Shown here piece after piece: positions 6,037 through 25,946 of a DNA stretch of 64,000 bases. Below the pieces are notes generated by a model, which made no database searches, was not told where the DNA came from, and saw only the letters and a program-made list of their open reading frames with translations. The position numbers were made by a program, and so were the translations under genes. The stretch is from Bacteroidales bacterium (GTDB lineage Bacteria > Bacteroidota > Bacteroidia > Bacteroidales > VadinHA17): assembly GCA_046706305.1 (NCBI GenBank), contig JBJKPQ010000188.1, positions 3,202 to 67,201 of the forward strand. Reading direction: 5' to 3'. Position 1 is the first letter of the stretch. The number at the start of each line of letters is the position of its first letter.

Positions 6037-7599
6037 TCAGCCGGAACCTTTCATCAGCCTTGCCACAGCTTCGGCACTCCTTGTTCCGTCGACAGCTGAT
6101 GATACAATACCTCCTGCATAACCTGATCCCTCACCGCACGGATATAATCCTTTTATGCTTATATGCTCCATAGTAACAGCATCCCTGGGTATACGCAATG
6201 GTGAAGAGGTACGCGATTCCACACCCAGAACAACAGCATCATTGGTAAGAAAGCCATGCATCATTTTTCCAAACAGGGTGAATCCGGTTCGCAGGCGGTC
6301 ACTTATACCACGAGGCAGCCATTCACTGATCTGAGAAGGTGTTGCACCGGGGAAATAAGATAAGGGAGGCAGAGATGAAGATTGCTTTCCCGAAATGAAA
6401 TCCATAAGCCTCTGAGCCGGTGCTTTTTGAGTCATTCCCCCGTTTATCCAGGCCCTGTGTTCTATATCCGCCTGGTATTCAAGACCTGCAAACACACCTG
6501 CTCTGTTATAAGCAGCCAGGTCGTCCGGTTTTATCTCCACCACAATACCGGAATTGGCGTAAGGCGAATTCCTTCCGGAAGGAGACATTCCATTTACAAC
6601 AACCTCCTCCTGACTGGTGGCGGAGGGGACGATAAATCCACCCGGACACATGCAAAAAGAATAAACTCCCCTGCCGTCGACCTGTTTCACCAGGCTATAA
6701 GAAGCGGCAGGCAGGAACTCTCCCCTGGCCGATCCGTGATATTGAATCATATCTATGAGTTCCTGGGGATGTTCAACCCTTACTCCCATGGCAAAGGATT
6801 TCATCTCCAGTACTATATTGCGCGAACGGCAAATATTGTAAATATCCCGTGCAGAATGGCCGCTTGCCAGGATAACAAAGTCCGATCTGATAATTTCATT
6901 ACCTGCTGTAGCAACACCCCTCACAGAGTTGCCTTCAATAAGAATGTCGGTCACCCTTTTACCAAGCAGAAAAATTCCTCCGGCGTCAACGATAGATTTT
7001 CTAATACTGGAAATGATACGCGGCAGCCTGTCTGTTCCAAGATGTGGATGAGCTTCATAAAGTATGTTCGAATCTGCGCCATGGTAACGCAGCAGCTCCA
7101 GAACCCTCGTATTGTCACCCCTTTTTTTTGACCTGGTATACAGCTTACCGTCGGAATAGGTACCGGCTCCTCCTTCGCCGAAACAATAGTTGCTGTCGGG
7201 GTCGACAACATGCTCACGGCTTATCCTGGCAATATCTCTTTTCCTGGCAGAAACATCCCGTCCTCTTTCAATTATTACCGGGCGCAAGCCCAGCTCGATA
7301 AGCCGGAGAGCGGCGAAAAGACCTGCTGGTCCGGCCCCAACTATTATCACTTCCCGGGCAGTGCCGACATCCAATGGTTGGAAAGGAAGGGGTGCAGATA
7401 TTACCGGGTCGGTGTCGTCATAAACTTCAACACTCAGGTTAATACGTATATTCTTTTTACGTGCATCGACAGATTTTCTTATAATTCTGACAACACTGAT
7501 ACTGTGCTCATCGATACCTGAAAGCCGTGCTGCCTCCCGGCGTACAAGCGATTCGTCGGCAGCAGCAGACGGACTCAGATTTAACTGAACCTGTTTCAT
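6037..7599 (-). CDS. FAD-dependent oxidoreductase (uncharacterised FAD-dependent dehydrogenase family)
   Basis: Dinucleotide-binding motif VIIVGAGPAGLFAALRL. Typical length and a C-terminal GEGSGYAGGI motif. Confidence 0.75.
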   Translation of the reverse strand: MKQVQLNLSPSAAADESLVRREAARLSGIDEHSISVVRIIRKSVDARKKNIRINLSVEVYDDTDPVISAPLPFQPLDVGTAREVIIVGAGPAGLFAALRLIELGLRPVIIERGRDVSARKRDIARISREHVVDPDSNYCFGEGGAGTYSDGKLYTRSKKRGDNTRVLELLRYHGADSNILYEAHPHLGTDRLPRIISSIRKSIVDAGGIFLLGKRVTDILIEGNSVRGVATAGNEIIRSDFVILASGHSARDIYNICRSRNIVLEMKSFAMGVRVEHPQELIDMIQYHGSARGEFLPAASYSLVKQVDGRGVYSFCMCPGGFIVPSATSQEEVVVNGMSPSGRNSPYANSGIVVEIKPDDLAAYNRAGVFAGLEYQADIEHRAWINGGMTQKAPAQRLMDFISGKQSSSLPPLSYFPGATPSQISEWLPRGISDRLRTGFTLFGKMMHGFLTNDAVVLGVESRTSSPLRIPRDAVTMEHISIKGLYPCGEGSGYAGGIVSSAVDGTRSAEAVARLMKGSG

Positions 7600-7605
7600 A
7601 AAATC

Positions 7606-8352
7606 CTATTCAAAATAGAAAGAAAGGACCCAAATCTGGGATTTGATTTTCTCGATGGCATTATAAAATTCCGAATGACCCGGAGCTGCCTGCTTGACAA
7701 GTATGTCGGAGAGCCCGTTGGACATTTTTACTTCGACCGACATCTTAAAATACGGGAGATAGAAATCCAGCCCGGCTCCCATCTCATAATAAAGGTCAGG
7801 ACGCTTGATTCGTATATAGACCGGCTTTGTATCATCGAATTCCTTCTTCCCGGCAAGGTCATACCTGTAATTAAGCCCGGTAATCACGTATGGCCTTATG
7901 TTGTTAAGCCTCTCTCCCTTAAACTTGAGAAGAAGGGGAAATTCGAGATATGACGATTCAAGCTTTTGCTGATCATTGTAAAGTACACCATTCTTGTAAT
8001 AACGTATTACCCTCTGACCGAAAGAGACACCCGGCAGAAACCTTATGTCAAGGAACCTGGCCGGCCTCAGATCAGTCACAATTTGTATGTTTATACCCGG
8101 GTTAAGCTTACTTACTTCAGGATAGAGTGAATCAGTCCTTAGGTAAGTCTGCGATGGAGTTATTTTATAATCCATTGTATTAAATCCCAGGCTGAATCCG
8201 AAATGAAGGACCTTTTCATCATACCATGAAGAGTTCTTAGGCTTCTGTTTCTGGGCATAAGCGCCAAGATGGATAAGCAGAAAGACAGAAACTAGGGCTA
8301 TATGAAGGTTCCTGGTTCTCAAAGAAGGTTTACGTTTATGGTTAAGTGCCAC
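7606..8352 (-). CDS. porT: PorT/SprT-like outer-membrane beta-barrel protein (T9SS-associated family)
   Basis: Signal peptide, alternating beta-strand pattern and an aromatic C-terminus (LSFYFE). It sits immediately downstream of ubiE, a synteny I recall for porT/sprT in Bacteroidota. A generic OMP_b-brl family is the alternative. Confidence 0.5.
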   Translation of the reverse strand: MALNHKRKPSLRTRNLHIALVSVFLLIHLGAYAQKQKPKNSSWYDEKVLHFGFSLGFNTMDYKITPSQTYLRTDSLYPEVSKLNPGINIQIVTDLRPARFLDIRFLPGVSFGQRVIRYYKNGVLYNDQQKLESSYLEFPLLLKFKGERLNNIRPYVITGLNYRYDLAGKKEFDDTKPVYIRIKRPDLYYEMGAGLDFYLPYFKMSVEVKMSNGLSDILVKQAAPGHSEFYNAIEKIKSQIWVLSFYFE

Positions 8353-8379
8353 AAGATAATAAACTGTATTGACAAATAA

Positions 8380-9114
8380 TTATTGCATTTCCTTTTTAAT
8401 ACCGGTATAAATACTGGCTATACCTCCGGTCAGTCTCACCTGGCCGGTATCATTATAACCGGCTTTTTCCATGATCTCAAGGAATATCTTATTCTCGGGA
8501 AACTGCATCACCGATTCCGGGAGGTACTTATATGCCGAGTGGTCCTTTGAGAATAACTTTCCAAAAAAGGGGAGTATACGGAGAAAATAGAAGTTATAGA
8601 TATGCCTGAACGGAAAGCCCGACGGTTTGGAGAATTCAAGGACAAGTACCATGCCACCGGGACGCAATACCCTGAACATCTCTTCCAGTCCCTTAAGCGG
8701 ATCAGCAAAATTTCTTACACCGAAAGCCACCATGGCCACATCAAACATATTATCCTTAAAAGGAATATTTTCCGAATCGGCCTGGACAAGCTCAATGCTT
8801 TCCGAAAGACCTTTCTTCCTTATCTTTTCCCTGCCTATCTCCAGCATGTTGGCCGAGATATCAATGCCTGTTATCTTTCCGGGAGACAGTCTCATGGCTG
8901 TTATTGCAAGATCTGCAGTGCCGGTGGCAACATCCAGGATACGTGGCTTACTGTACCTTGCCCCGATCATTTTAATTGCTTTCCTGCGCCATCTCCTGTC
9001 GATGCTGAAAGAAAGAAAATGATTAAGAAAATCATATCTCCAGGCTATGGAATCAAACATGTTCTCCACAACCGCTTTCTTATCTTTCTTTTGATTTTCC
9101 TGGTTACCTGCCAT
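8380..9114 (-). CDS. ubiE: Demethylmenaquinone / ubiquinone-menaquinone C-methyltransferase UbiE/MenG
   Basis: MFDSIAWRYDFLNH signature and SAM motif ILDVATGTADLA. The start is moved to MAGNQEN (9114) because a -7 box lies at 9128-9135 and the 22-aa extension is Cys-rich junk. Confidence 0.9.
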   Translation of the reverse strand: MAGNQENQKKDKKAVVENMFDSIAWRYDFLNHFLSFSIDRRWRRKAIKMIGARYSKPRILDVATGTADLAITAMRLSPGKITGIDISANMLEIGREKIRKKGLSESIELVQADSENIPFKDNMFDVAMVAFGVRNFADPLKGLEEMFRVLRPGGMVLVLEFSKPSGFPFRHIYNFYFLRILPFFGKLFSKDHSAYKYLPESVMQFPENKIFLEIMEKAGYNDTGQVRLTGGIASIYTGIKKEMQ

Positions 9115-9127
9115 ATAATTGAAAATG

Positions 9128-9135
9128 CAAATATA
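9128..9135 (-). promoter_or_regulatory. Candidate -7 promoter box (TATATTTG on minus strand) for ubiE-porT-FAD oxidoreductase
   Basis: Plus-strand CAAATATA is TATATTTG on the minus strand. It lies 14 nt upstream of the ATG at 9114. Confidence 0.4.
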
Positions 9136-9225
9136 GCATGTAAGGACGTCGCATGCAACGTCCATGCAACCATCGGTCAATATATTTTCTTATTTTTACA
9201 TCTTTAATTAAACTATCGGACAAAC

Positions 9226-9990
9226 ATGAATAAGACAATAATGATAACCGGCGCCACCTCCGGTTTCGGTAAAGCCATAGCAGAACGCTTTGCCGGCAAT
9301 GGCTATAACATTATTATAACCGGAAGAAGGAAAGACAGGCTTGAAAAGCTGGTGAGCGAGCTTTCAGCCGTAAGCAATACAAAGGTACTGGCGCTTGAGT
9401 TTGATGTAAGGAACAATGATGAGGTCATCAGGTCAATAAACGCATTGCCTGAGGAATGGAAAGCCATTGACATACTGGTTAATAATGCAGGCCTTGCAGT
9501 AGGAATGTCACATATTGATGAAGGTATAACCGACGACTGGGAAAGGATGATTGATACAAACGTGAAAGGTCTTCTTTATGTGACCAGGGCCGTGGCGCCG
9601 CTAATGACAGCAAGAAATACAGGATATATCTTCAATATCGGTTCAATTGCCGGAAAGGAAGTGTACGAGAACGGTAATGTATACTGTGCTTCCAAGTTTG
9701 CTGTGGATGCTCTCTCAAAAGCCATGCGAATTGATCTGTTGAAGCATAATATCAGGGTAACACATATTGCTCCGGGCATGGCAGAGACAGAGTTTTCGGT
9801 TGTGCGTTTTAAAGGTGACTGGGAAAAGGCTGATGCGGTATATAAGGGTTTTGATCCGCTGACAGGAAAAGATATAGCCGATGTTGTACATTATTGCGCC
9901 TCTCTTCCCGGGCATGTTTGTATCAACGACCTTGTAATTACTCCTACCCAGCAGGCCAGTGCATACTACAGTAACAGAAGACAGGAATAG
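9226..9990 (+). CDS. SDR-family NAD(P)-dependent oxidoreductase (YdfG-like)
   Basis: TGATSGFG cofactor motif, NNAG, and catalytic YCASK. Confidence 0.85.
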   Translation: MNKTIMITGATSGFGKAIAERFAGNGYNIIITGRRKDRLEKLVSELSAVSNTKVLALEFDVRNNDEVIRSINALPEEWKAIDILVNNAGLAVGMSHIDEGITDDWERMIDTNVKGLLYVTRAVAPLMTARNTGYIFNIGSIAGKEVYENGNVYCASKFAVDALSKAMRIDLLKHNIRVTHIAPGMAETEFSVVRFKGDWEKADAVYKGFDPLTGKDIADVVHYCASLPGHVCINDLVITPTQQASAYYSNRRQE

Positions 9991-17927: not shown

Positions 17928-19994
17928 TTATTTAATTGTCCCGGCCAGTTCATCATATTTCCTGGCTATATCCGGGTCGGTTTTTCTGTAAGTATCAGCC
18001 AGTGCCTTAATTGCCGGCTTATACCGTGGATTCATATCGAGGCATGTCATTAATAATTTCCTCGCTTTACTGGCATTATCATCCATTAGTAATCCGGCCA
18101 GGCTGACATATGCTTCAAAATATTTACGGTTCGCCCTGATCAGCCTCTCGTAATACCTGATAGCTTCATCATCTTTTTTCTGCCACTTTGCGATATTACC
18201 AAGGTACATCAGAATCGGCTCAAAATCAGGATTAATTTCAAGTCCTTTTTTCAAAACCGAATCAGCTTTTTCACATTGTCCGTCATTACAAAGAGCCGCC
18301 GCAAAATTAAAAAAAATCATTTCATCAGTGTCATCATTTTTTAAAGCATTTTCAAAATGCTCAATAGCCTCCTTGTTTTCTCCCTTATTCAGAGCAACAT
18401 AACCAAAGTAATCCTCTTTCGATTTTCTCTTAAGCACGGCACAAACGGGAACAGTGTCGACATAGATTACCTTAATGGCATCCGGAGGCGGATAATAATG
18501 ATGCCTCAGCTTATATGGGGAAATATACCTGTTTACAACAATAGCATAATCCCAGTCAAATTCACTGCGTTCATCATAGCGGAAATATGAAGTCTCTATA
18601 TTGGGATGTTTCCTGAACTGCCAGACCACAGAATATGTTGCTTTTACTTTGATCTTTCCTGTATCATTATTTTCCTCCAGGTATTTTATGAGCCATTTGG
18701 AAGCCTCTGTCTGACTCACATAGTAATAATCCATTTCATAGTTGGTGTATGCGCCGTCAACTCCTCCTTCAAGGATATTATAATACATATATTCATAAGG
18801 GTGATTGGATATCATATACCGCAGGGGTGGATAGGAAAACATGACCATCAATAAAACCATCCCCCACCTGAGGTACCTGTTTCTAACACTTATAAAAAAA
18901 TAATAATAGCCCATTCCTGAAAGAAGTACAATGGCAGGATACAGGAACAGAAACTGCCGCCAGGAACTGTAGAGGTTTGATTTCTCATAAACAACGAACA
19001 GCATCGGGAACAGTATCGTGAACAGCACGGCAAGAAATAAAAAGATCCTGTTGCCTCTGATTATTTTGCCGAAAAACGTGCACAACAGAACCAACCCCGC
19101 AAGAACGATAACAGGTATTGTTATACCCATCGATTTGGGCAGGTAATACCAAGGCATAAAATCAGACCATTCCTCCTTTCCATCAAATATCTGCCTGAAA
19201 GTATCAGGGAAATGTGCCATTACCCTGTACGATTCGATAACATTCCTGACTGGGCTCTGCAAGGCATAAGGCCACAGAATGATGCTCAGCAGCCAGGCAA
19301 CCACAATTATGGCAGTAATCCACCCGAAGCCGGAAGCAAGCTCCTTTAAATCGGACTGATTTTTCTTGATGTAACCATAAAAATGGTACAGACCCCAGAA
19401 AAACAGGAGGTAGCATATCAAAATGAAACCACCAGCCCTGATGCTCATTGCACCGGCAATACCAAGGGTCAGAAATATTATGTCCACCGGGTACTTTTTC
19501 CTTCCGGAGGACAGAAATTTAAGAGTAAAAAATGTTGCTGTTATGTATCCCAGCGCAAAAGGGACATCTTTAAGGTTATTCTGTGAATGCCCTATGAATG
19601 TAGGCGAAAGAGCAAACAGGATGAGTACTGTTATCCCGGCCCGCCAATCGGCCAGCCATACGGCAAACAGTGCAGTAACAAGCATAGTAAGCCATCCTGC
19701 CACGGAGTTCATCTCGTGCCTGAATCTGTAGACATCGTCAATACCGAACCATTTTGTCAGGATTGTAACGATATTGTCGAAAGCCTGGCCATAATATTTC
19801 AGATGAGTCCCCGGCGTGTTAAGAGCTGAACGGTCGGTTCCATGCGTGGCAAAATAATCATATACAGCTACCGACTGGTTATAATGCAATACCTCATCAC
19901 ACGAGATACCTGCATCTCTGCTTGTAACCACCAGGGCAACAAGTATGAATACAGAAATGATAAAGAAGATATATTTCAGCCCTTTTTCTTTCAT
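17928..19994 (-). CDS. GT-C fold glycosyltransferase (PMT/ArnT, GT39/GT83-like) with C-terminal TPR domain
   Basis: About 12 TM helices. A DE motif lies directly after TM1 (ISCDEVLHY), as in PMT/ArnT loop 1. The C-terminal ~170 aa are TPR-like repeats (ALNKGENKEAIEHFENALKND ... YLGNIAKWQKKDDEAIRYYERLI ...). Confidence 0.75.
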   Translation of the reverse strand: MKEKGLKYIFFIISVFILVALVVTSRDAGISCDEVLHYNQSVAVYDYFATHGTDRSALNTPGTHLKYYGQAFDNIVTILTKWFGIDDVYRFRHEMNSVAGWLTMLVTALFAVWLADWRAGITVLILFALSPTFIGHSQNNLKDVPFALGYITATFFTLKFLSSGRKKYPVDIIFLTLGIAGAMSIRAGGFILICYLLFFWGLYHFYGYIKKNQSDLKELASGFGWITAIIVVAWLLSIILWPYALQSPVRNVIESYRVMAHFPDTFRQIFDGKEEWSDFMPWYYLPKSMGITIPVIVLAGLVLLCTFFGKIIRGNRIFLFLAVLFTILFPMLFVVYEKSNLYSSWRQFLFLYPAIVLLSGMGYYYFFISVRNRYLRWGMVLLMVMFSYPPLRYMISNHPYEYMYYNILEGGVDGAYTNYEMDYYYVSQTEASKWLIKYLEENNDTGKIKVKATYSVVWQFRKHPNIETSYFRYDERSEFDWDYAIVVNRYISPYKLRHHYYPPPDAIKVIYVDTVPVCAVLKRKSKEDYFGYVALNKGENKEAIEHFENALKNDDTDEMIFFNFAAALCNDGQCEKADSVLKKGLEINPDFEPILMYLGNIAKWQKKDDEAIRYYERLIRANRKYFEAYVSLAGLLMDDNASKARKLLMTCLDMNPRYKPAIKALADTYRKTDPDIARKYDELAGTIK

Positions 19995-20923
19995 GGGTCC
20001 TGATAGTCGTCATCGTAGTATTCATTTATAAAATAAACCGGACGATTCTGCGATTCTTTATAGTTCCTGTAGATATATTCCCCAAGGATACCAAGGAAAA
20101 CAAGTTGAATGGACCCGAGGAAATATATGCTAAGAAGGGTTGATGACCATCCCGGTATTGCGAATCCGTATACTTTAGCAACGAGTACATATATCCCAGC
20201 AGCGAAAAACACAAGAGTACCCAGGGAGCCAAGGATCAGGCATAAACGTATGGGAAACCTGGAGAATGAAAAGATGGCATCGGCAGCCAGTATAAACAGT
20301 TTACGAATACTCATTTTAGGGTCGCCTCTGAAGCGGTCTTCTCTAACGAACTCCACATAACCCTGCCTGAATCCTATAAACGTCCTTAATCCGGGCAGAT
20401 ACCTCACCTTTTCTTTCATAGACAGTAAAGCATCAACCGCTTTCCGCTTCATCATGGAATAATTGCCATAGTTTTCCATATGCTTAATATCACCAATATT
20501 CCTGAAAAGCAGGTGAAACATGACAGCATATGCATTTCTTCCTCTTTTACCCTTTCTGCCTGTTTTCTTGCCGCTTACTATATCATAATCCTCTTTGAGT
20601 ATCTTATCATACATCTCCGACAGAAGCTCGGGCGGATCCTGCAGGTCACCATCCATCATTGCCACTATATCACCTTTCGCATGCTCAAGCCCGGCTGTAT
20701 AGGCTGCCTGGTGTCCAAAGTTTTTGGAAAGCGTTAATATTTTTATTCTTTTATCTGATTTATGCCATTTCAGCAGTTTTTCAAGACTGTTATCAGTGCT
20801 GCCGTCATCAACAATAATAACTTCATAGTCAACGACAAAAGACTCAATGGCTTCTTTAGTTCTTTGCACAAGCTCATCGATAAGGCTTTCTTCGTTGAAT
20901 ACAGGAATAACAAGTGACAGCAT
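19991..20923 (-). CDS. GT2 polyprenyl-phosphate glycosyltransferase (ArnC/GtrB/Dpm1-like)
   Basis: VIPVFNEE ... IIVDDGSTDNS ... DGDLQDPPE motifs plus two C-terminal TM helices. A 4-nt overlap (ATGA) joins it to the downstream GT-C gene. Confidence 0.85.
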   Translation of the reverse strand: MLSLVIPVFNEESLIDELVQRTKEAIESFVVDYEVIIVDDGSTDNSLEKLLKWHKSDKRIKILTLSKNFGHQAAYTAGLEHAKGDIVAMMDGDLQDPPELLSEMYDKILKEDYDIVSGKKTGRKGKRGRNAYAVMFHLLFRNIGDIKHMENYGNYSMMKRKAVDALLSMKEKVRYLPGLRTFIGFRQGYVEFVREDRFRGDPKMSIRKLFILAADAIFSFSRFPIRLCLILGSLGTLVFFAAGIYVLVAKVYGFAIPGWSSTLLSIYFLGSIQLVFLGILGEYIYRNYKESQNRPVYFINEYYDDDYQDP

Positions 20924-20943
20924 AATTATTGCTATTTCCGGGG

Positions 20944-21879
20944 TTAATCATGTAAATTCCCTGTTTCCGCAGGACCTTTCACATTGAATCGTGGTCTTAG
21001 AACAGCTTTATCAGCTGTTGGAAAGTCATCCGGCACCCTTTGTGTTACCCGGCCCGTCGCAGCCCATTCTGCCCCTCTCCTGAAAGTTGTAATGAAACCC
21101 GTACACTGCATGGCGGGGCCTCCGCCATCTTCGGCATGTCCCATTGTTGTATGAAATATACGCCCTTTTCCGTAGGTAACAGTCATGAGAACAGGCTCGT
21201 CTCTCATGGTACCTCCGCCGGCAGCACTATCGGCGAATGCCGTGGCAAGTATCTGAAGGTTCTTTGCCGGTCCTCTCAGCTGGCTGTACAGTTCATCTGT
21301 ACCATGAAGCCATTCCGCCGGCAGTCCCTTCATGACGGGATGTTCGGGCATCCTTGCCTTAACAAGGAACTCTCTCCTGGCCCCGTGAGATCCTCCTGTC
21401 CCGGGGCTTGTATCGGTCATCAGCACATCATTCTTATAATATACATATGGCCCGTCTTTTTCATTACGGTCACCCCACCCTCCAAGTCCGGTCATCTCGT
21501 TATATTCTTTCCAGCCTGGAAAGGAGTTGTCGGCGGCATGATAAATTACCAGTCCTCCCCCGTTCCTTACAAAATCCACAAAGGCCGATTTTGTTTTTTC
21601 CGGCCATGGGTCACCATTATAATCCATAACAATGAGCCTGTACTTTGAAAAGTCGGGACAGAAACCGCTCATATCACTATCCTGAGGAGGTGTTAATATG
21701 ATGTCGCATGAGAAAATACCTGTCTCGTCAAGAATAGTTTTCAGTACAGGAGAGCTTGCCTGCCAGTTATGATTATTCTGTCCGGTTATAATAAGAGTCT
21801 TATATACGGACTCGTGTCTGCAGGCAGAGAACAGAATCATCAATCCTGTCATCAATAAAAGATACCTTTTTTTCATCAT
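20944..21879 (-). CDS. ThuA-domain (trehalose-utilisation-like) lipoprotein
   Basis: Start moved to MMKKRYLLL (21879) to remove the overlap with the upstream gene. Lipobox LFSAC. ThuA-like motifs GGGLVIYHAADNSF, HPVMKGLP, DELY and GKGRIFHTTMGH. Confidence 0.75.
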   Translation of the reverse strand: MMKKRYLLLMTGLMILFSACRHESVYKTLIITGQNNHNWQASSPVLKTILDETGIFSCDIILTPPQDSDMSGFCPDFSKYRLIVMDYNGDPWPEKTKSAFVDFVRNGGGLVIYHAADNSFPGWKEYNEMTGLGGWGDRNEKDGPYVYYKNDVLMTDTSPGTGGSHGARREFLVKARMPEHPVMKGLPAEWLHGTDELYSQLRGPAKNLQILATAFADSAAGGGTMRDEPVLMTVTYGKGRIFHTTMGHAEDGGGPAMQCTGFITTFRRGAEWAATGRVTQRVPDDFPTADKAVLRPRFNVKGPAETGNLHD

Positions 21880-21919
21880 TCCTGAGTTTATAATTCTGAT
21901 ACCTGCAAAAAAAGAACTA

Positions 21920-23257
21920 TCAAAGAGGCGTTGGAGTACCGGGAATTGGAGTCTTAAATTCCATATCCACCGGGCCGAACTCAAACTTTTTCGGTCCCAG
22001 ATCCATATCCGATTTAAACATCTCATCCCATGTTATCAGCTTTCCCGTATAGGCGGCTGTTCTTCCCATAATGGCAGTAAGTGTTGAGATGGCTGTTGTC
22101 TCAGCTTCATTTACATAGTTACCTGTACGTATGGCATATACCAGATGCATGTGTTCCTGCACATAAGGAGGTATTTTAAGAGTGTTCATAGGGTTACCGT
22201 TTTCATCCCTGGGGTATTCAAACTTCCATTTAACCTTGCCGTCAAGGTCCCAGATAGTGTTTATGCAGTTTGTATATCCCTCGGTACCATAAATAAGCTC
22301 TCCTGTTCCGTTGGCACAGCTGTCTATCTGGCGGCACATACTGTGCGAACTGATACCATTTCCATAGTCAAAGTCGATGCTGAAGAAATCATACTGGTCG
22401 CCTGTGATCCTTCTTGCCCTGCCTCCATAGCCTATTGCTCTTTCCGGGTGTTTGCCCATGAACCAGTTTATTACATCGATATTGTGAACATGAGTGTCAA
22501 GGATAAAATCACCACCAAGCCAGCAGAAATTATTCCAGTCGCGTATCATGTATGTCATATCATCCCATCCGGGTTCTCTCAGGCGGAACCATACATGATC
22601 CTGGTTCCAGAAAGCTTTGGCTGAGGTAAGCCGGCCTATGGCACCCCCCATTATTTGTTTATATGTCTCAATGTAGTCTTCCCGGTGACGGCGCTGTGTT
22701 CCTGTTACGACATTCAGGCCAAGGGCCTCTGCTTTTTTTGCAGTTGTTATTATTGATCTTATTCCAACAGGATCTACGGCCATTGGTTTTTCCATGAAGA
22801 CGTGCTTATGCATTGTAACAGCTTCCAGGAAATGATCGGGCCGGAATTTACATGGAGTGGCAAGTATGACAACATCAATGTCTGGTAATGCAATCAGCTT
22901 TTTATATGCATCAAAGCCGACAAAGCAGTTTTCTTCTGGTATGGGAAGATTAAAAGATGCAAACCTGTCGCGGCATATGTCAATCTTGTCCTGGAAAACA
23001 TCAGCAAGAGCTATAATTTCAAGATCCGGTCCGGCACTTATAAAATTGATAGCTGCACCTGTACCCCGCGCTCCGGCACCAACAAGGCCGGCACGCAGCT
23101 TTTTCCCCGGAGGTGCTCCGTGTAATATTGGAGGTAAACCAAGCTCTTTATTATCAGGTGTTCTTTTACATGACGACAATAAAGACCCTGCACTGGCAAG
23201 CCCGATACCGGCCAATGCTGTTTTTCCTATAAAATTTCTTCTGTTAAGATTATGCAT
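21920..23257 (-). CDS. TAT-signal Gfo/Idh/MocA-family oxidoreductase (probable periplasmic lipoprotein)
   Basis: The twin-arginine motif NRRNFIGKTALAG is followed by the lipobox LLSSC. Rossmann motif GLVGAGARG, EKPM motif (FMEKPMA), and a Gfo/Idh/MocA C-terminal domain. Confidence 0.85.
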   Translation of the reverse strand: MHNLNRRNFIGKTALAGIGLASAGSLLSSCKRTPDNKELGLPPILHGAPPGKKLRAGLVGAGARGTGAAINFISAGPDLEIIALADVFQDKIDICRDRFASFNLPIPEENCFVGFDAYKKLIALPDIDVVILATPCKFRPDHFLEAVTMHKHVFMEKPMAVDPVGIRSIITTAKKAEALGLNVVTGTQRRHREDYIETYKQIMGGAIGRLTSAKAFWNQDHVWFRLREPGWDDMTYMIRDWNNFCWLGGDFILDTHVHNIDVINWFMGKHPERAIGYGGRARRITGDQYDFFSIDFDYGNGISSHSMCRQIDSCANGTGELIYGTEGYTNCINTIWDLDGKVKWKFEYPRDENGNPMNTLKIPPYVQEHMHLVYAIRTGNYVNEAETTAISTLTAIMGRTAAYTGKLITWDEMFKSDMDLGPKKFEFGPVDMEFKTPIPGTPTPL

Positions 23258-23282: not shown

Positions 23283-24818
23283 TTATTGTCCCAAACTACT
23301 GTCAGCTTCACATACCACCCTGAAGCCCACATCAATACAATCTGAATACCACCATATACTCTTTGGCATCTGTGGATCAGTCACAAGCCAGGCCTTGGTC
23401 TTTGTGAAATCACGTGCTGCACTTCTGACATCCTTTGCATCGCTTTTGAAAGATCCTCCCCTGATCACATGTTCACTGCCTCTCAGAGGTCCCCGCGGGT
23501 TAACAAGGCCGGTGGAATCGTTCAGGTAGGCTGTCGGAGAATAATAATCGAGGCAGAATTCGGCAACATTACCAGACATATTCTTCAAGCCAAAGGGATT
23601 AGGCTTCATGTCACCGGGTTCCCTGGTCTTCCCGTCGCTGTTCAGTTTATACACAACCCTTGAAGAGATAACAGCAGTGTCCGGACGGAATATCTTCCTC
23701 AGGAAACCCGTTGAAGAGAATTTCTTTGGATTACCAGGGAAGAAATAAGGTGTTTCAGTTCCTCCACGACATGCATATTCCCATTCGGCTTCAGTAGGCA
23801 GCCTGTATTTCTTTCCTGTAACTTTGGATAACCACTGGCAATAGACGTTTGCAGCATGCCACGACATTGTAATAGCAGGACGCTTGCCCTTACCCCAGCC
23901 CTGGTCGGGAGCACCCCATGGAGGTGTAGCTCCGCTTATAGCATCTACATCTTTTTTTGTAACAACCTGGCCTTCTGTCCTTCCCTGCGAACTTGTTGCC
24001 CTGAAGAAAGCCATATATTCATCCCATGTGACTTCAGTTTTTGATATCCAGAACGTTGAAAGAGTCCCTTTTCTTACCGCACCCTCATCAGCCTCACGCA
24101 AAGGTTCATTATCCGGACTCCCCATATCGAAAGACCCTCCCGGCAGTGCAACCATGTCGAAAGAGACAGATGAACCCGGTATTTTTTCAGTGAAGCTCTC
24201 AAATTTATCCACTTTTGCAGGTTCCGTGTATTCAGCCTGTTTCGCTGTTGCATTCACCCCAAAAGTAGTATCGTGTGCATGCAGCAGATTCTTGTCATAA
24301 TGACCCACACCAAGATGACAGTTGATACAGCTCAGAGGATCTTTGCTGGTTGTGTAGAAAAGGTGTGCATTCCCTCCGTTAACCGAAAGGGTAACCGGGA
24401 AAAGGTTCTGATGACATTTAAGGCATCCCTGTTCATATACATAGCCCTTGGCTTTATCGAGCGATTTTTTTGCTTCCCAGTTGAAACTGGAGCTGTCTTT
24501 AAAATAATACCCGTAAACATCCCTGAAGCCATGCTTAGCCTTGGCAAAGAGGTAGCCATGTCCTTCCGGCGGAAGATGGCAATCGACACAATGTACAATA
24601 TTTCCCGTGGGGTTATTATAATGTGTTGAGAGTCTCCATGCAGCATCAGCCTGGGGATGCACATGACAGGATATACAATAGCGGTCGGATGAGGTGTAAT
24701 TGACTACAGCCTTGCCCGATTTTAAAATGATGAAACCAATAATGAGACCCAAAATAATGTACCAGACCTTTGTCTTCCCCCTGACAGAAGTCTGTTTACG
24801 ACGATTTCTTATATTCAT
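23283..24818 (-). CDS. Fusion protein: membrane-anchored tetrahaem NapC/NirT/NrfH-type cytochrome c (N-terminal) plus FGE-sulfatase/SUMF1-fold domain (C-terminal)
   Basis: One TM helix (VWYIILGLIIGFIIL) is followed by four CxxCH motifs (CISCH, CVDCH, CLKCH, CINCH) within ~175 aa. Then come the FGE-fold motifs LPTEAEWEYACRGG, NPFGLKNMSGNVAEF and HVIRGGSF. Confidence 0.8.
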   Translation of the reverse strand: MNIRNRRKQTSVRGKTKVWYIILGLIIGFIILKSGKAVVNYTSSDRYCISCHVHPQADAAWRLSTHYNNPTGNIVHCVDCHLPPEGHGYLFAKAKHGFRDVYGYYFKDSSSFNWEAKKSLDKAKGYVYEQGCLKCHQNLFPVTLSVNGGNAHLFYTTSKDPLSCINCHLGVGHYDKNLLHAHDTTFGVNATAKQAEYTEPAKVDKFESFTEKIPGSSVSFDMVALPGGSFDMGSPDNEPLREADEGAVRKGTLSTFWISKTEVTWDEYMAFFRATSSQGRTEGQVVTKKDVDAISGATPPWGAPDQGWGKGKRPAITMSWHAANVYCQWLSKVTGKKYRLPTEAEWEYACRGGTETPYFFPGNPKKFSSTGFLRKIFRPDTAVISSRVVYKLNSDGKTREPGDMKPNPFGLKNMSGNVAEFCLDYYSPTAYLNDSTGLVNPRGPLRGSEHVIRGGSFKSDAKDVRSAARDFTKTKAWLVTDPQMPKSIWWYSDCIDVGFRVVCEADSSLGQ

Positions 24819-25013: not shown

Positions 25014-25946
25014 TCAGAATCTCTTTTTATATATGTGGCAGTAAGGCAGTTTGCCGGTTTTTGCAAAATAGTCCTGCTGATCTTTTTCCGCCGGGTAAAA
25101 AACGGATGCCTCAGCAAGTTCTGTCGCAATTTTCAAACCTTTAGATCTCAGGATATTAAGATCCTTCTCTGCCGTTTGTTTTTGCTCTTCATTCTTATAA
25201 AATATCTCTGACCTGTACTGGTTGCCGTAATCCGGGCCCTGGTGTCCCACTTCCGTCGGATCATGTATCTCAAGAAAGAGTCTTACCAGGTTATCATATG
25301 TTGTTTCAGACGGATTATAGATAACCTTTACAGCCTCAGCATGCCCGGTGGTTCCTGCACTTACTTCCCTGTAAGTGGGGTCTTTTACATGCCCTCCGGT
25401 ATAGCCTGCTATTGTGCAAACAACACCGGGTGCCTTTTCAAGCTGGTACTGTACACCCCAGAAACATCCTCCGGCAAATACTGCTGTGCCGTATCTTCCC
25501 GGGGGAAGGTGTGCCGGAACAAAGTCCATTGAAACAGAATTGACACAATAACGTGTATCCTTTGCTGTCAGATGCTCACCGATAAATACATGCCCCAGGT
25601 GTGCACCACAATTTGCACATTCGATCTCAGTCCTGATTCCGTCCGGATCGGGAAAACTGAGAACTGCTCCTTTTATGGCATCATCAAAACTGGGCCATCC
25701 GCAATCGGATTTAAACTTATCTGAAGAGTAATACAAAGCTTCACCACATTTTTTACATAAATAGGTACCTTTGCCTGTGAAATCAGTATATTTCCCTGTA
25801 AAGGGCGCTTCGGTGCCTTTATTATTAATTACATAAGATTCTGTCCTGGTAAGATCATTATATGGTAATTTTTCCTGTGAAAAAGATTTTTCGCTGGTAG
25901 TCATAAAATATAATGTTAATATAAGGAAAACAGCTCTTATTTTCAT
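25014..25946 (-). CDS. msrAB: Secreted bifunctional methionine sulfoxide reductase MsrB-MsrA
   Basis: Signal peptide. The MsrB half has CKKCGEALY, GWPSF and RYCVNS. The MsrA half has the GGCFWG motif. Confidence 0.9.
   Translation of the reverse strand: MKIRAVFLILTLYFMTTSEKSFSQEKLPYNDLTRTESYVINNKGTEAPFTGKYTDFTGKGTYLCKKCGEALYYSSDKFKSDCGWPSFDDAIKGAVLSFPDPDGIRTEIECANCGAHLGHVFIGEHLTAKDTRYCVNSVSMDFVPAHLPPGRYGTAVFAGGCFWGVQYQLEKAPGVVCTIAGYTGGHVKDPTYREVSAGTTGHAEAVKVIYNPSETTYDNLVRLFLEIHDPTEVGHQGPDYGNQYRSEIFYKNEEQKQTAEKDLNILRSKGLKIATELAEASVFYPAEKDQQDYFAKTGKLPYCHIYKKRF

Follow-up and report, generated by a model that had tools for sequence, protein, structure and literature searches.

A membrane-anchored tetrahaem cytochrome fused to an FGE-fold domain in Bacteroidales, a candidate flavinylated electron-transfer subunit for an exported sugar dehydrogenase

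The stretch of DNA described here, 64,000 nucleotides from a Bacteroidales bacterium of the VadinHA17 lineage (contig JBJKPQ010000188.1, positions 3,202 to 67,201; hereafter the window), carries on its minus strand a gene whose product joins a respiratory-type cytochrome to a domain with the fold of the formylglycine-generating enzyme (FGE, or SUMF1). The open reading frame (ORF) at 23283..24818 is complete, with an ATG start and 511 aa before the stop codon, and encodes in order a transmembrane anchor, a tetrahaem module, a linker and the FGE-like domain. The next gene on the same strand (21920..23257), 25 nt downstream, encodes a Gfo/Idh/MocA-family lipoprotein with a twin-arginine translocation (TAT) signal (RRNF), as judged from Pfam and an alignment of partner proteins. 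The FGE-like domain has lost the catalytic cysteines of FGE and carries, on a loop of the former active site, an exact match to the sequence that ApbE flavinylates; its relatives are paired with the same class of dehydrogenase in four phyla, and many of them are clustered with apbE. These features point to a flavocytochrome that may carry electrons from the exported dehydrogenase to the quinone pool.

Profile searches recognise both halves of the protein. Pfam Cytochrom_NNT (PF03264) covers residues 18-174 (E 7.7e-25, 88.1 bits against a cut-off of 24.1) and FGE-sulfatase (PF03781) covers residues 221-471 (E 2.2e-43, 149 bits against a cut-off of 23), which bears out both domain assignments of an earlier interpretation made from the letters of the window (the sequence-only reading). 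The single transmembrane helix and the four haem motifs that it had listed were confirmed by re-translation. The best database clusters, at least 120 of them with 74-100% identity and a length of about 511 aa, contain both domains without exception and come from NCBI, JGI, ENA and Logan assemblies. Full-length fusions are present in at least 17 species-level genomes, many of them from Bacteroidia and one an Acidobacteriota metagenome-assembled genome (MAG), and a cultured species, Sunxiuqinia dokdonensis, is among the carriers. The literature yielded nothing on a NapC-FGE fusion, an FGE-like/Gfo gene pair or a link between ApbE and FGE, in agreement with the earlier opinion that the fusion belongs to no class known to be characterised.

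The N-terminal half (aa 18-174; 24297..24767, minus strand like all features of the fusion) is a NapC/NirT/NrfH-type tetrahaem module, as indicated by PF03264, by alignment with Desulfovibrio NrfH (2j7a_C) and by its invariant residues. It starts with the membrane anchor VWYIILGLIIGFIIL (aa 18-34; 24717..24767), which was read directly and aligns to the transmembrane helix of NrfH. In the re-translation the helix is preceded by a strongly basic cytoplasmic tail, MNIRNRRKQTSVRGKTK, which predicts an N-in topology with the remainder of the protein in the periplasm. Four haem motifs follow, each placed by re-translation and by the alignment of fusions: CISCH (aa 48-52; 24663..24677), with the invariant H54 after it, CVDCH (aa 77-81; 24576..24590), CLKCH (aa 132-136; 24411..24425) and CINCH (aa 164-168; 24315..24329). 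The four CxxCH motifs are invariant in 29 diverse fusions, as are H54, H66, H152, H173, K93 and D100, and the invariant histidines are numerous enough that they could serve as distal haem ligands. The alignment with NrfH extends over the transmembrane helix, haems 1 and 2 and a K-x-x-x-G-x-R-D-V-Y segment, which we take to bear the lysine and aspartate of the NrfH quinol site; the corresponding segment of the fusion, K93 to D100 (KAKHGFRD; 24519-24542), aligns to it. Judged from the haem motifs, the invariant residues and this alignment, the NapC module looks competent. It passes the cut-off of PF03264 and misses every NCBIfam equivalog cut-off (75.2 against 134.2 for NrfH, 44.9 against 310.6 for NapC/NirT and 56.9 against 478 for TorC), and is thus a member of the NapC/NirT family rather than an orthologue of any named enzyme.

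The FGE-like domain (aa 206-511; 23286..24203) is supported by PF03781, by matches to PDB sequences, by an AlphaFold2 (AF2) model and by Foldseek. Its closest solved sequence relatives in the PDB search are the FGE of T. curvata (tcFGE) and PvdO (E ~1e-21). The AF2 model, built from a 98-sequence alignment of the family, has a confident FGE core (pLDDT 85-95) and a NapC part of low confidence, and Foldseek ranked PvdO first (5hha, TMt 0.75), followed by FGEs, ToxD, PorK and EgtB. The FGE signatures LPTEAEWEYACRGG, NPFGLKNMSGNVAEF and HVIRGGSF are all present. The residues after GGSF, KSDAKDVRSAARD, include no cysteine, and the whole site of the catalytic cysteine loop (GGSFKSDAKDVRSAAR, aa 454-469; 23412..23459), located with the family and tcFGE alignments, is free of it. 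In the 98-sequence alignment no conserved cysteine lies between G455 and W477, where sporadic ones occur in 11 sequences, and no histidine of the domain is invariant; the protein is therefore neither a copper-dependent FGE nor an EgtB-type iron enzyme. Both alignments uphold the loss of the catalytic cysteine pair and copper ligands that the sequence-only reading had proposed. Its term 'cysteine-less' was too strong when taken literally, since the FGE half holds five cysteines (327, 350, 422, 494 and 503), of which C327 and C350 are 99% conserved. In human FGE, C365 and C346 are presumably the pairing partners of their equivalents; these two are not conserved in the FGE-like family, and C327 and C350 may be joined in a new disulfide or exist as free thiols.

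Other substitutions in the former active site are equally consistent across the family. Trp228 of the O2 pocket of tcFGE aligns to alanine in 86% of the 98 members, Ser266 is retained as S456 in 93%, and R465 and R469 are further invariants of the family's own. The RSAAR segment, which replaces the cysteine loop of FGE, is followed by a conserved, family-specific insert, WLVTDPQMPKSIWW (aa 477-490; 23349..23390), in which W477, D481, P482, Q483, P485, S487 and W489 are invariant and which was modelled with a pLDDT below 50 despite its conservation. Within the modelled FGE-like domain, confidence is low only in loops 277-308 and 480-492, which are also the best-conserved loops specific to the family; this would fit, without proving it, that they fold around a ligand or partner missing from the model.

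Several established identities for the domain were considered and rejected. A redox metal site would need residues of which the family has no invariant example, whether His, Met or a Cys pair. All models of EgtB, OvoA, SenA and PvdO score far below their cut-offs, and neither the His triad nor the DinB-type iron site is present. PorK/GldK of the type IX secretion system reaches 107.7 bits against a cut-off of 350 and matches over part of the profile. NCBI labels relatives of the protein as 'SUMF1/EgtB/PvdO family nonheme iron enzyme', and a search of a representative library was dominated by giant multi-FGE-repeat proteins.

The sequence DAISGAT (aa 292-298; 23925..23945) is an exact match to D-x-x-[ST]-G-A-[ST], with T298 as the predicted attachment site of flavin mononucleotide (FMN). 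This motif is the minimal seven-residue sequence sufficient for flavinylation by ApbE, which puts FMN on its last Thr or Ser, also when the motif is inserted in surface loops (PMC12052999, a 2025 review). From amino-acid frequencies, the chance of a canonical motif is estimated at ~0.002 per protein of the size of the fusion. Across the 98 members the aligned positions read D (99%), A (93%), V/I, S/T (94%), R/G/H, P (70%) or A (30%) and T/S (100%), followed by a variable residue, P (99%) and Y/W. The neighbourhoods of FGE-like genes were compared in 80 loci, returned by a scan in which a single genome represented each GTDB species, and the six-frame ORFs of at least 150 aa in these loci (more than 450,000 residues) contain the canonical motif 12 times, always in FGE-like proteins and always at the same site. 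As for other candidate targets of ApbE in these loci, no other ORF has the canonical motif, and [ST]GA[ST] is not a conserved feature of the Gfo partners, in which the conserved stretch is RGTGAA.

The position of the motif is informative as well. In a phmmer alignment with tcFGE (6s07), D292-T298 corresponds to D100-A106 and P300/W301 to Trp108/Trp109. The structure of tcFGE with substrate shows Met99 and Ala101 lining the substrate-binding dell, and Trp108 and Trp109 hydrogen-bonded to the water network of the active site, with Trp109 packing on the substrate (PMC6676471). Taken together, the alignment and these published pocket residues would place the predicted FMN-bearing threonine at the entrance to what was ancestrally the pocket for substrate and copper. 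In the FGE-like family this pocket has lost the cysteines and the bulky Trp228 and has gained the DPQxPKSxWW insert. Haem motifs of the c-type are matured only outside the cytoplasm, and since DAISGAT lies C-terminal both to them and to the N-in transmembrane helix, it should be extracytosolic, as ApbE targets are expected to be in the systems compared below. FGE, sulfatases and Gfo proteins are not mentioned in the flavinylation surveys and review (eLife 2021, mSystems 2024, JBC 2025).

The gene pair is conserved far beyond the window. A full-length TAT-Gfo homologue lies directly downstream of the FGE-like gene and on the same strand in at least 53 of the 80 loci, which belong to Bacteroidota (Bacteroidales, Chitinophagaceae, Flavobacteriaceae, Pedobacter and Cytophagales), Planctomycetota, Verrucomicrobiota and Acidobacteriota. 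The same pair was found in six of six extra, independently chosen contigs (for five of them gene calls and Pfam annotation already existed, and the sixth was checked with Pfam), and in Sunxiuqinia dokdonensis and one Verrucomicrobiota genome it stands as a bare two-gene unit amid unrelated genes. Across the loci the partners retain the twin-arginine signal, the GxGxxG Rossmann loop, the EKP motif and the catalytic His; with GxGxxG, EKP and H258 conserved, the partner in the window resembles NAD(P)-dependent sugar dehydrogenases. Its conservation across loci indicates that the unit consists of an FGE-like protein and a TAT-exported Gfo/Idh/MocA dehydrogenase, sometimes with ApbE.

Two more specific identities for the Gfo partner were tried and rejected: the BT2158-type glycoside 3-dehydrogenase model (NF058561) gives 36 bits against a cut-off of 750, and no GH109 structure, as would suggest an NAD-dependent glycosidase, is among its PDB matches. 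The signal peptide of the partner is followed by a lipobox cysteine (RRNF...SLLSSC), and with its TAT signal the protein looks like a TAT-exported lipoprotein. The lipobox is common to homologues from Bacteroidia and missing from those of Planctomycetota.

The FGE-like domain has itself been joined to haem domains in at least two independent cases, according to Pfam: NapC-type modules in Bacteroidia and one member of Acidobacteriota, and PSCyt1 in Planctomycetota and Verrucomicrobiota. Outside Bacteroidia the forms are a haem-less, Sec-secreted protein of about 320 aa, proteins with one or two N-terminal PSCyt1 domains, and proteins with an FG-GAP-type N-terminal extension. The occurrence of two unrelated haem modules on one domain argues that the job of the FGE-like domain involves electron transfer. 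The proposal of the sequence-only reading that the fusion is an electron outlet for the neighbouring oxidoreductase has accordingly gained strong support, from the pair in four phyla and from the separate PSCyt1 fusion. The FG-GAP-type form is a variant of about 720 aa in Limisphaerales (loci L022 and L088, proteins P0284, P0303 and P0342), with an FG-GAP/VCBS-type extension and no haem domains; the TAT-Gfo gene still comes after it, and in L088 so does apbE.

Other genes recur near the pair. TAT-signal xylose-isomerase-like TIM barrels are found in 19 loci, and DUF1080 3-keto-disaccharide hydrolases in six loci and in L088. Gfo-family dehydrogenases, TIM barrels and DUF1080 proteins are the families of the 3-keto-glycoside pathway encoded by BT2156-BT2159 of Bacteroides (PMC8121099), and the company of the TIM-barrel and DUF1080 genes is pointing to 3-keto-sugar metabolism. 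Sulfatase genes were not consistently present near FGE-like genes in the loci and contigs inspected.

The linkage with apbE was examined with a hidden Markov model built from candidate neighbours. ApbE homologues are encoded in 24 of the 80 loci, where they abut the FGE-like gene in 21 and are separated from it by the Gfo gene only in three, and PF02424 was confirmed in all seven homologues tested (E 1e-57 to 1e-77). The gene occurs in four arrangements, namely divergent upstream, co-directional upstream, downstream and after the Gfo gene, in loci from four phyla, and it is also linked in two of three additional haem-less contigs. Genomes have one or two apbE genes, so that its presence within a few genes by chance would be expected in less than 1% of cases. 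An adjacent apbE is present in 24 of the 69 loci with the x-P motif and in none of the 11 that have canonical G-A (Fisher p = 0.03), a distribution that fits a housekeeping ApbE acting on canonical motifs and a dedicated ApbE on divergent ones. Among the 17 NapC-type fusions, the sole one with apbE adjacent is at an Acidobacteriota locus (L015). In this MAG (6789-9536) the reading frames of apbE and the Gfo gene are broken into several, and haem motif 1 has the sequence CDQFCH (CX3CH), which is probably due to long-read indel errors rather than biology.

From the fusion architecture, the loss of catalytic residues, the gene pair, the haem fusions, the positioned motif and the adjacency of apbE in relatives, we infer a covalent FMN, a contact with the Gfo partner, a direction of electron flow and a type of sugar substrate. 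In the explanation that we favour, with a confidence that leans only slightly towards its being correct, the protein is a flavocytochrome whose ApbE-attached FMN takes hydride from the NAD(P)H of the partner and whose four haems pass the electrons to menaquinone. The fusion would serve a periplasmic sugar dehydrogenase, probably one for a glycoside or polyol, as its membrane-anchored subunit for electron transfer. The Gfo partner would be exported folded through the TAT system with NAD(P) already bound, as is Gfo of Zymomonas (summarised in PMC8121099), and ApbE would link FMN to the DAISGAT loop by a phosphoester bond at T298. Oxidation of the sugar by the partner would yield bound NAD(P)H through hydride transfer; the tethered FMN would accept this hydride, convert two-electron into one-electron transfer, and hand single electrons to the four c-type haems and on to menaquinone at an NrfH-like site near haem 1. 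Given redox potentials of about -320 mV for NAD(P)H, about -75 mV for menaquinone and positive values for c-type cytochromes, electron transfer from NAD(P)H to menaquinone or cytochromes is downhill and the reverse is not, which together with the 3-keto-sugar gene company argues for the oxidative direction. A broader generalisation, which we hold to be plausible though not quite probable, is that this version of the FGE/SUMF1 fold forms a new ApbE-flavinylated redox class that re-oxidises the NAD(P)H of TAT-exported Gfo dehydrogenases and feeds the respiratory chain. The electrons would leave by the NapC module to menaquinone in anaerobic Bacteroidia, by PSCyt1 haems in Planctomycetota and Verrucomicrobiota, and by further acceptors elsewhere.

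A number of observations weigh against these proposals. The scores of the Gfo partner stay far under the curated NCBIfam cut-offs of all named sugar dehydrogenases, the best model being myo-inositol 2-dehydrogenase (72.8 against 355). In Gfo-type enzymes the tightly bound NAD(P)H is buried, and we know of no precedent in the Gfo family for hydride transfer from it to the flavin of another protein. To our knowledge, all characterised ApbE targets have Ala where most FGE-like members have Pro (G-A-T against x-P-T), no x-P-T variant of the motif is known to be flavinylated, and the FGE fold is without precedent as a flavin binder. The confidence of the AF2 model is low in exactly those loops that are relevant to flavin binding. 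Clustering of neighbouring ORFs revealed no conserved cytochrome gene near haem-less members (for example L034, L038, L054 and L077-L080). Finally, there is no apbE within the 64-kb window, nor does one adjoin 16 of the 17 NapC-type fusions, so that the proposal requires an ApbE from another part of the genome.

The rival explanations account for less, since none of them covers both the apbE linkage and the motif. One is that the FGE-like domain is a cofactor-less module of the C-type-lectin-like kind that docks the Gfo enzyme or a glycan, in which case electrons would reach the haems by another way or the cytochrome would merely anchor the complex in the membrane. It agrees with the lack of invariant residues (His, a Cys pair or Met) capable of binding a redox metal, with the structural role of PorK/GldK, which share the FGE fold, and with the persistence of the gene pair even where no haem domain is fused. 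A scaffold would leave unexplained why apbE is tightly linked in 24 of 80 loci and why a flavinylation-type motif, exact and conserved in position, has a hydroxyl residue in 100% of members, and it offers no path for the hydride of NAD(P)H to one-electron haems. The motif and the adjacent apbE would supply just this missing two-electron to one-electron converter. We therefore regard pure docking as unlikely. The domain has indeed lost FGE chemistry, as the sequence-only reading had thought probable on account of the missing cysteines, but its picture of a probably inert docking module fits poorly with an exact ApbE motif on the former active-site loop.

It is likewise improbable that the domain is an oxidase of the PvdO/FGE kind, which would oxidise a small molecule or mature the Gfo protein and pass its electrons to the haems (or, in aerobes, to O2), as an anaerobic, quinone-coupled counterpart of the O2-dependent FGE-type reaction. 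PvdO and FGE are the best structural and NCBIfam neighbours of the domain, its former substrate pocket is its most conserved part, and a flavin in that pocket would suit catalysis too. On the other hand, the domain lies far under the PvdO/FGE-type cut-offs (105 bits against 500) and lacks the catalytic Cys pair, PvdO has no DAxSxxT loop, the partner looks like a common NAD(P) dehydrogenase, whose active-site signature is intact and for which no maturation requirement is known, and sulfatase genes are not consistently near.

Reversal of the electron flow is the rival to which we give still less credence. The system would then be a quinol-driven periplasmic reductase, with electrons passing from menaquinol through the haems and FMN to a substrate, by analogy with CymA feeding flavinylated fumarate or urocanate reductases. 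The relatives NapC, NrfH and CymA normally oxidise quinol, and many of the periplasmic enzymes characterised as flavinylated by ApbE are reductases (PMC8238504). Transfer from menaquinol to Gfo-bound NAD(P)+ would nevertheless be uphill by ~250 mV, and by more from the cytochromes of the PSCyt1 fusions, and the DUF1080 hydrolase and TIM-barrel isomerase belong to oxidative 3-keto-sugar routes (PMC8121099). An artefact, in which a frameshift or assembly error welded two separate genes together and which the sequence-only reading had itself considered, can be dismissed, because the frame is continuous, the same layout of about 511 aa recurs in more than 120 clusters across assemblies of four sources, and the cultured Sunxiuqinia dokdonensis has the same architecture.

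In the window, the fusion and the Gfo gene are the first members of a minus-strand cluster that continues with genes for a ThuA-family lipoprotein, a GT2 polyprenyl-phosphate glycosyltransferase and a TPR membrane protein, with intergenic gaps of 25, 40, 20 and -4 nt. No terminator-like sites lie between the cluster genes on the coding strand, and promoter-like matches are at chance level, the sigma-70 consensus possibly being unsuited to this organism; no boundaries of an operon emerged from these scans. The ThuA-family gene (20944..21879) lies 40 nt downstream of the Gfo gene, and its product has a lipobox cysteine after the signal peptide (LMILFSAC). The sequence-only reading had seen the fusion at the head of an operon of sugar-type oxidoreductases. 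This description fits the Gfo gene, which is an oxidoreductase gene and forms a conserved pair with the fusion; the ThuA protein is assigned to no oxidoreductase class by Pfam, and the five-gene cluster as a whole is not a conserved unit. Linkage of the ThuA gene is limited to close relatives (L001-L006), which makes its membership in the module uncertain.

The closest relative, an uncultured Rikenellaceae MAG (L001), has a fusion of 88% protein identity, about 82% DNA identity over the fusion-Gfo segment, and collinearity with the window over 17.5 kb. In L001-L006 a second TAT-Gfo/Idh/MocA gene (437 aa, with a PF19051-type C-terminal domain) lies between the first Gfo gene and the ThuA gene, and the C-terminus of ThuA is about 90 aa longer. 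The window has neither (20923-21926, compared with 10894-13483 in L001), and it has lost the second TAT-Gfo gene.

Directly after the ThuA gene, at 17928-20923 on the minus strand, the gene for the 310-aa, PgfS/ArnC-like GT2 polyprenyl-phosphate glycosyltransferase shares 4 nt with that for a 688-aa multi-pass membrane protein with C-terminal TPR repeats. The two are kept in L001, L002 and L004 and absent from the remaining loci of the family, and are probably an unrelated glycan-modification pair. On the other side, 195 nt upstream of the cytochrome fusion and on the same strand, a bifunctional methionine sulfoxide reductase, a secreted MsrB-MsrA fusion with a signal peptide, is encoded at 25014-25946. 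A periplasmic Msr requires an electron donor; no evidence for a link between MsrB-MsrA and the cytochrome fusion was found, and none but the two closest relatives preserve the synteny.

Glycan-degrading Bacteroidota, Planctomycetota and Verrucomicrobiota are rich in periplasmic Gfo/Idh/MocA dehydrogenases. The recycling of the NAD(P)H that these enzymes bind tightly is an acknowledged question in the field, and for BT2158 an unidentified second sugar has been proposed, since gut Bacteroides have no cytochrome c chains (PMC8121099). If the flavocytochrome proposal is correct, it would answer this question directly without a second sugar substrate, allow periplasmic sugar oxidation to feed anaerobic respiration, and reveal periplasmic respiratory sugar dehydrogenases of a widespread kind that has gone unrecognised. 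A structurally unrelated fold would join the substrates of ApbE, possibly with a new x-P-T variant of the motif that has a dedicated ApbE, and the annotation of thousands of proteins as 'SUMF1/EgtB/PvdO family nonheme iron enzyme' or 'sulfatase-modifying factor 1' would be corrected.

Comparison with known systems shows which parts of the proposal are familiar. The FGE-like family shares with FGE/SUMF1 the fold (PF03781; Foldseek probability 1.0, TM ~0.65) and the RLPTEAEWEYA, GNVxE and RGGS motifs, including the Ser equivalent to Ser266 of tcFGE. It differs in lacking both copper-binding catalytic cysteines, in having a shorter loop at their site and Ala in place of Trp228, in the gain of the 14-residue insert W..DPQ.PKS.WW, and in a DA[VI][ST]x[PA][TS] loop where FGE has DAVVPEA. 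PvdO, the dihydropyoverdine dehydrogenase and best structural match, is likewise periplasmic, without the FGE cysteines and redox-related in its role, whereas the FGE-like domain reaches 105 bits against the PvdO cut-off of 500, and PvdO has an alignment gap in place of the motif loop, no haem fusion and another gene context. In comparison with NrfH, CymA and NapC, the cytochrome half has the same single N-terminal transmembrane helix, four CxxCH motifs and PF03264 score above cut-off, and its K...G.RDVY segment aligns to the quinol-site region of NrfH. Haem 1 of the fusion is followed by His (CxxCHxH) where NrfH has Met, the module is covalently joined to a 300-aa FGE-fold domain, and electrons probably enter the quinone pool rather than leave it. 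In overall design the protein would be comparable to a CymA or NrfH coupled to an ApbE-flavinylated module.

Extracytosolic flavinylated, cytochrome-linked electron transfer is already known; the FGE fold and the Gfo class of partner had not previously been tied to it. With the known ApbE-flavinylated proteins (FMN_bind of NqrC/RnfG, NosR, PceC, DUF2271, DUF3570, Flavodoxin_4 and FMN_red), the FGE-like fusion has in common an extracytosolic location, the exact D-x-x-[ST]-G-A-[ST] sequence, a clustered apbE in many relatives and a link to cytochromes and quinone-linked electron transfer. It differs from them in its FGE/C-type-lectin-like carrier fold, which is absent from the flavinylation surveys and review cited above, in the x-P-[TS] variant of most family members, and in that its flavinylation is a prediction. 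The periplasmic glycoside 3-dehydrogenase systems, namely the LacABC type (an FAD enzyme with a cytochrome c subunit) and BT2158 of Bacteroides thetaiotaomicron, and also the glucose-fructose oxidoreductase of Zymomonas, resemble the present one in their TAT-exported sugar dehydrogenase and its DUF1080 and TIM-barrel company, and face the same problem of re-oxidising an NAD(P)-loaded periplasmic enzyme (PMC8121099). The system described here has a Gfo partner outside the BT2158 family and no FAD/GMC subunit, and re-oxidation would proceed through a flavinylated FGE-fold cytochrome instead of a second sugar or a LacB-type cytochrome.

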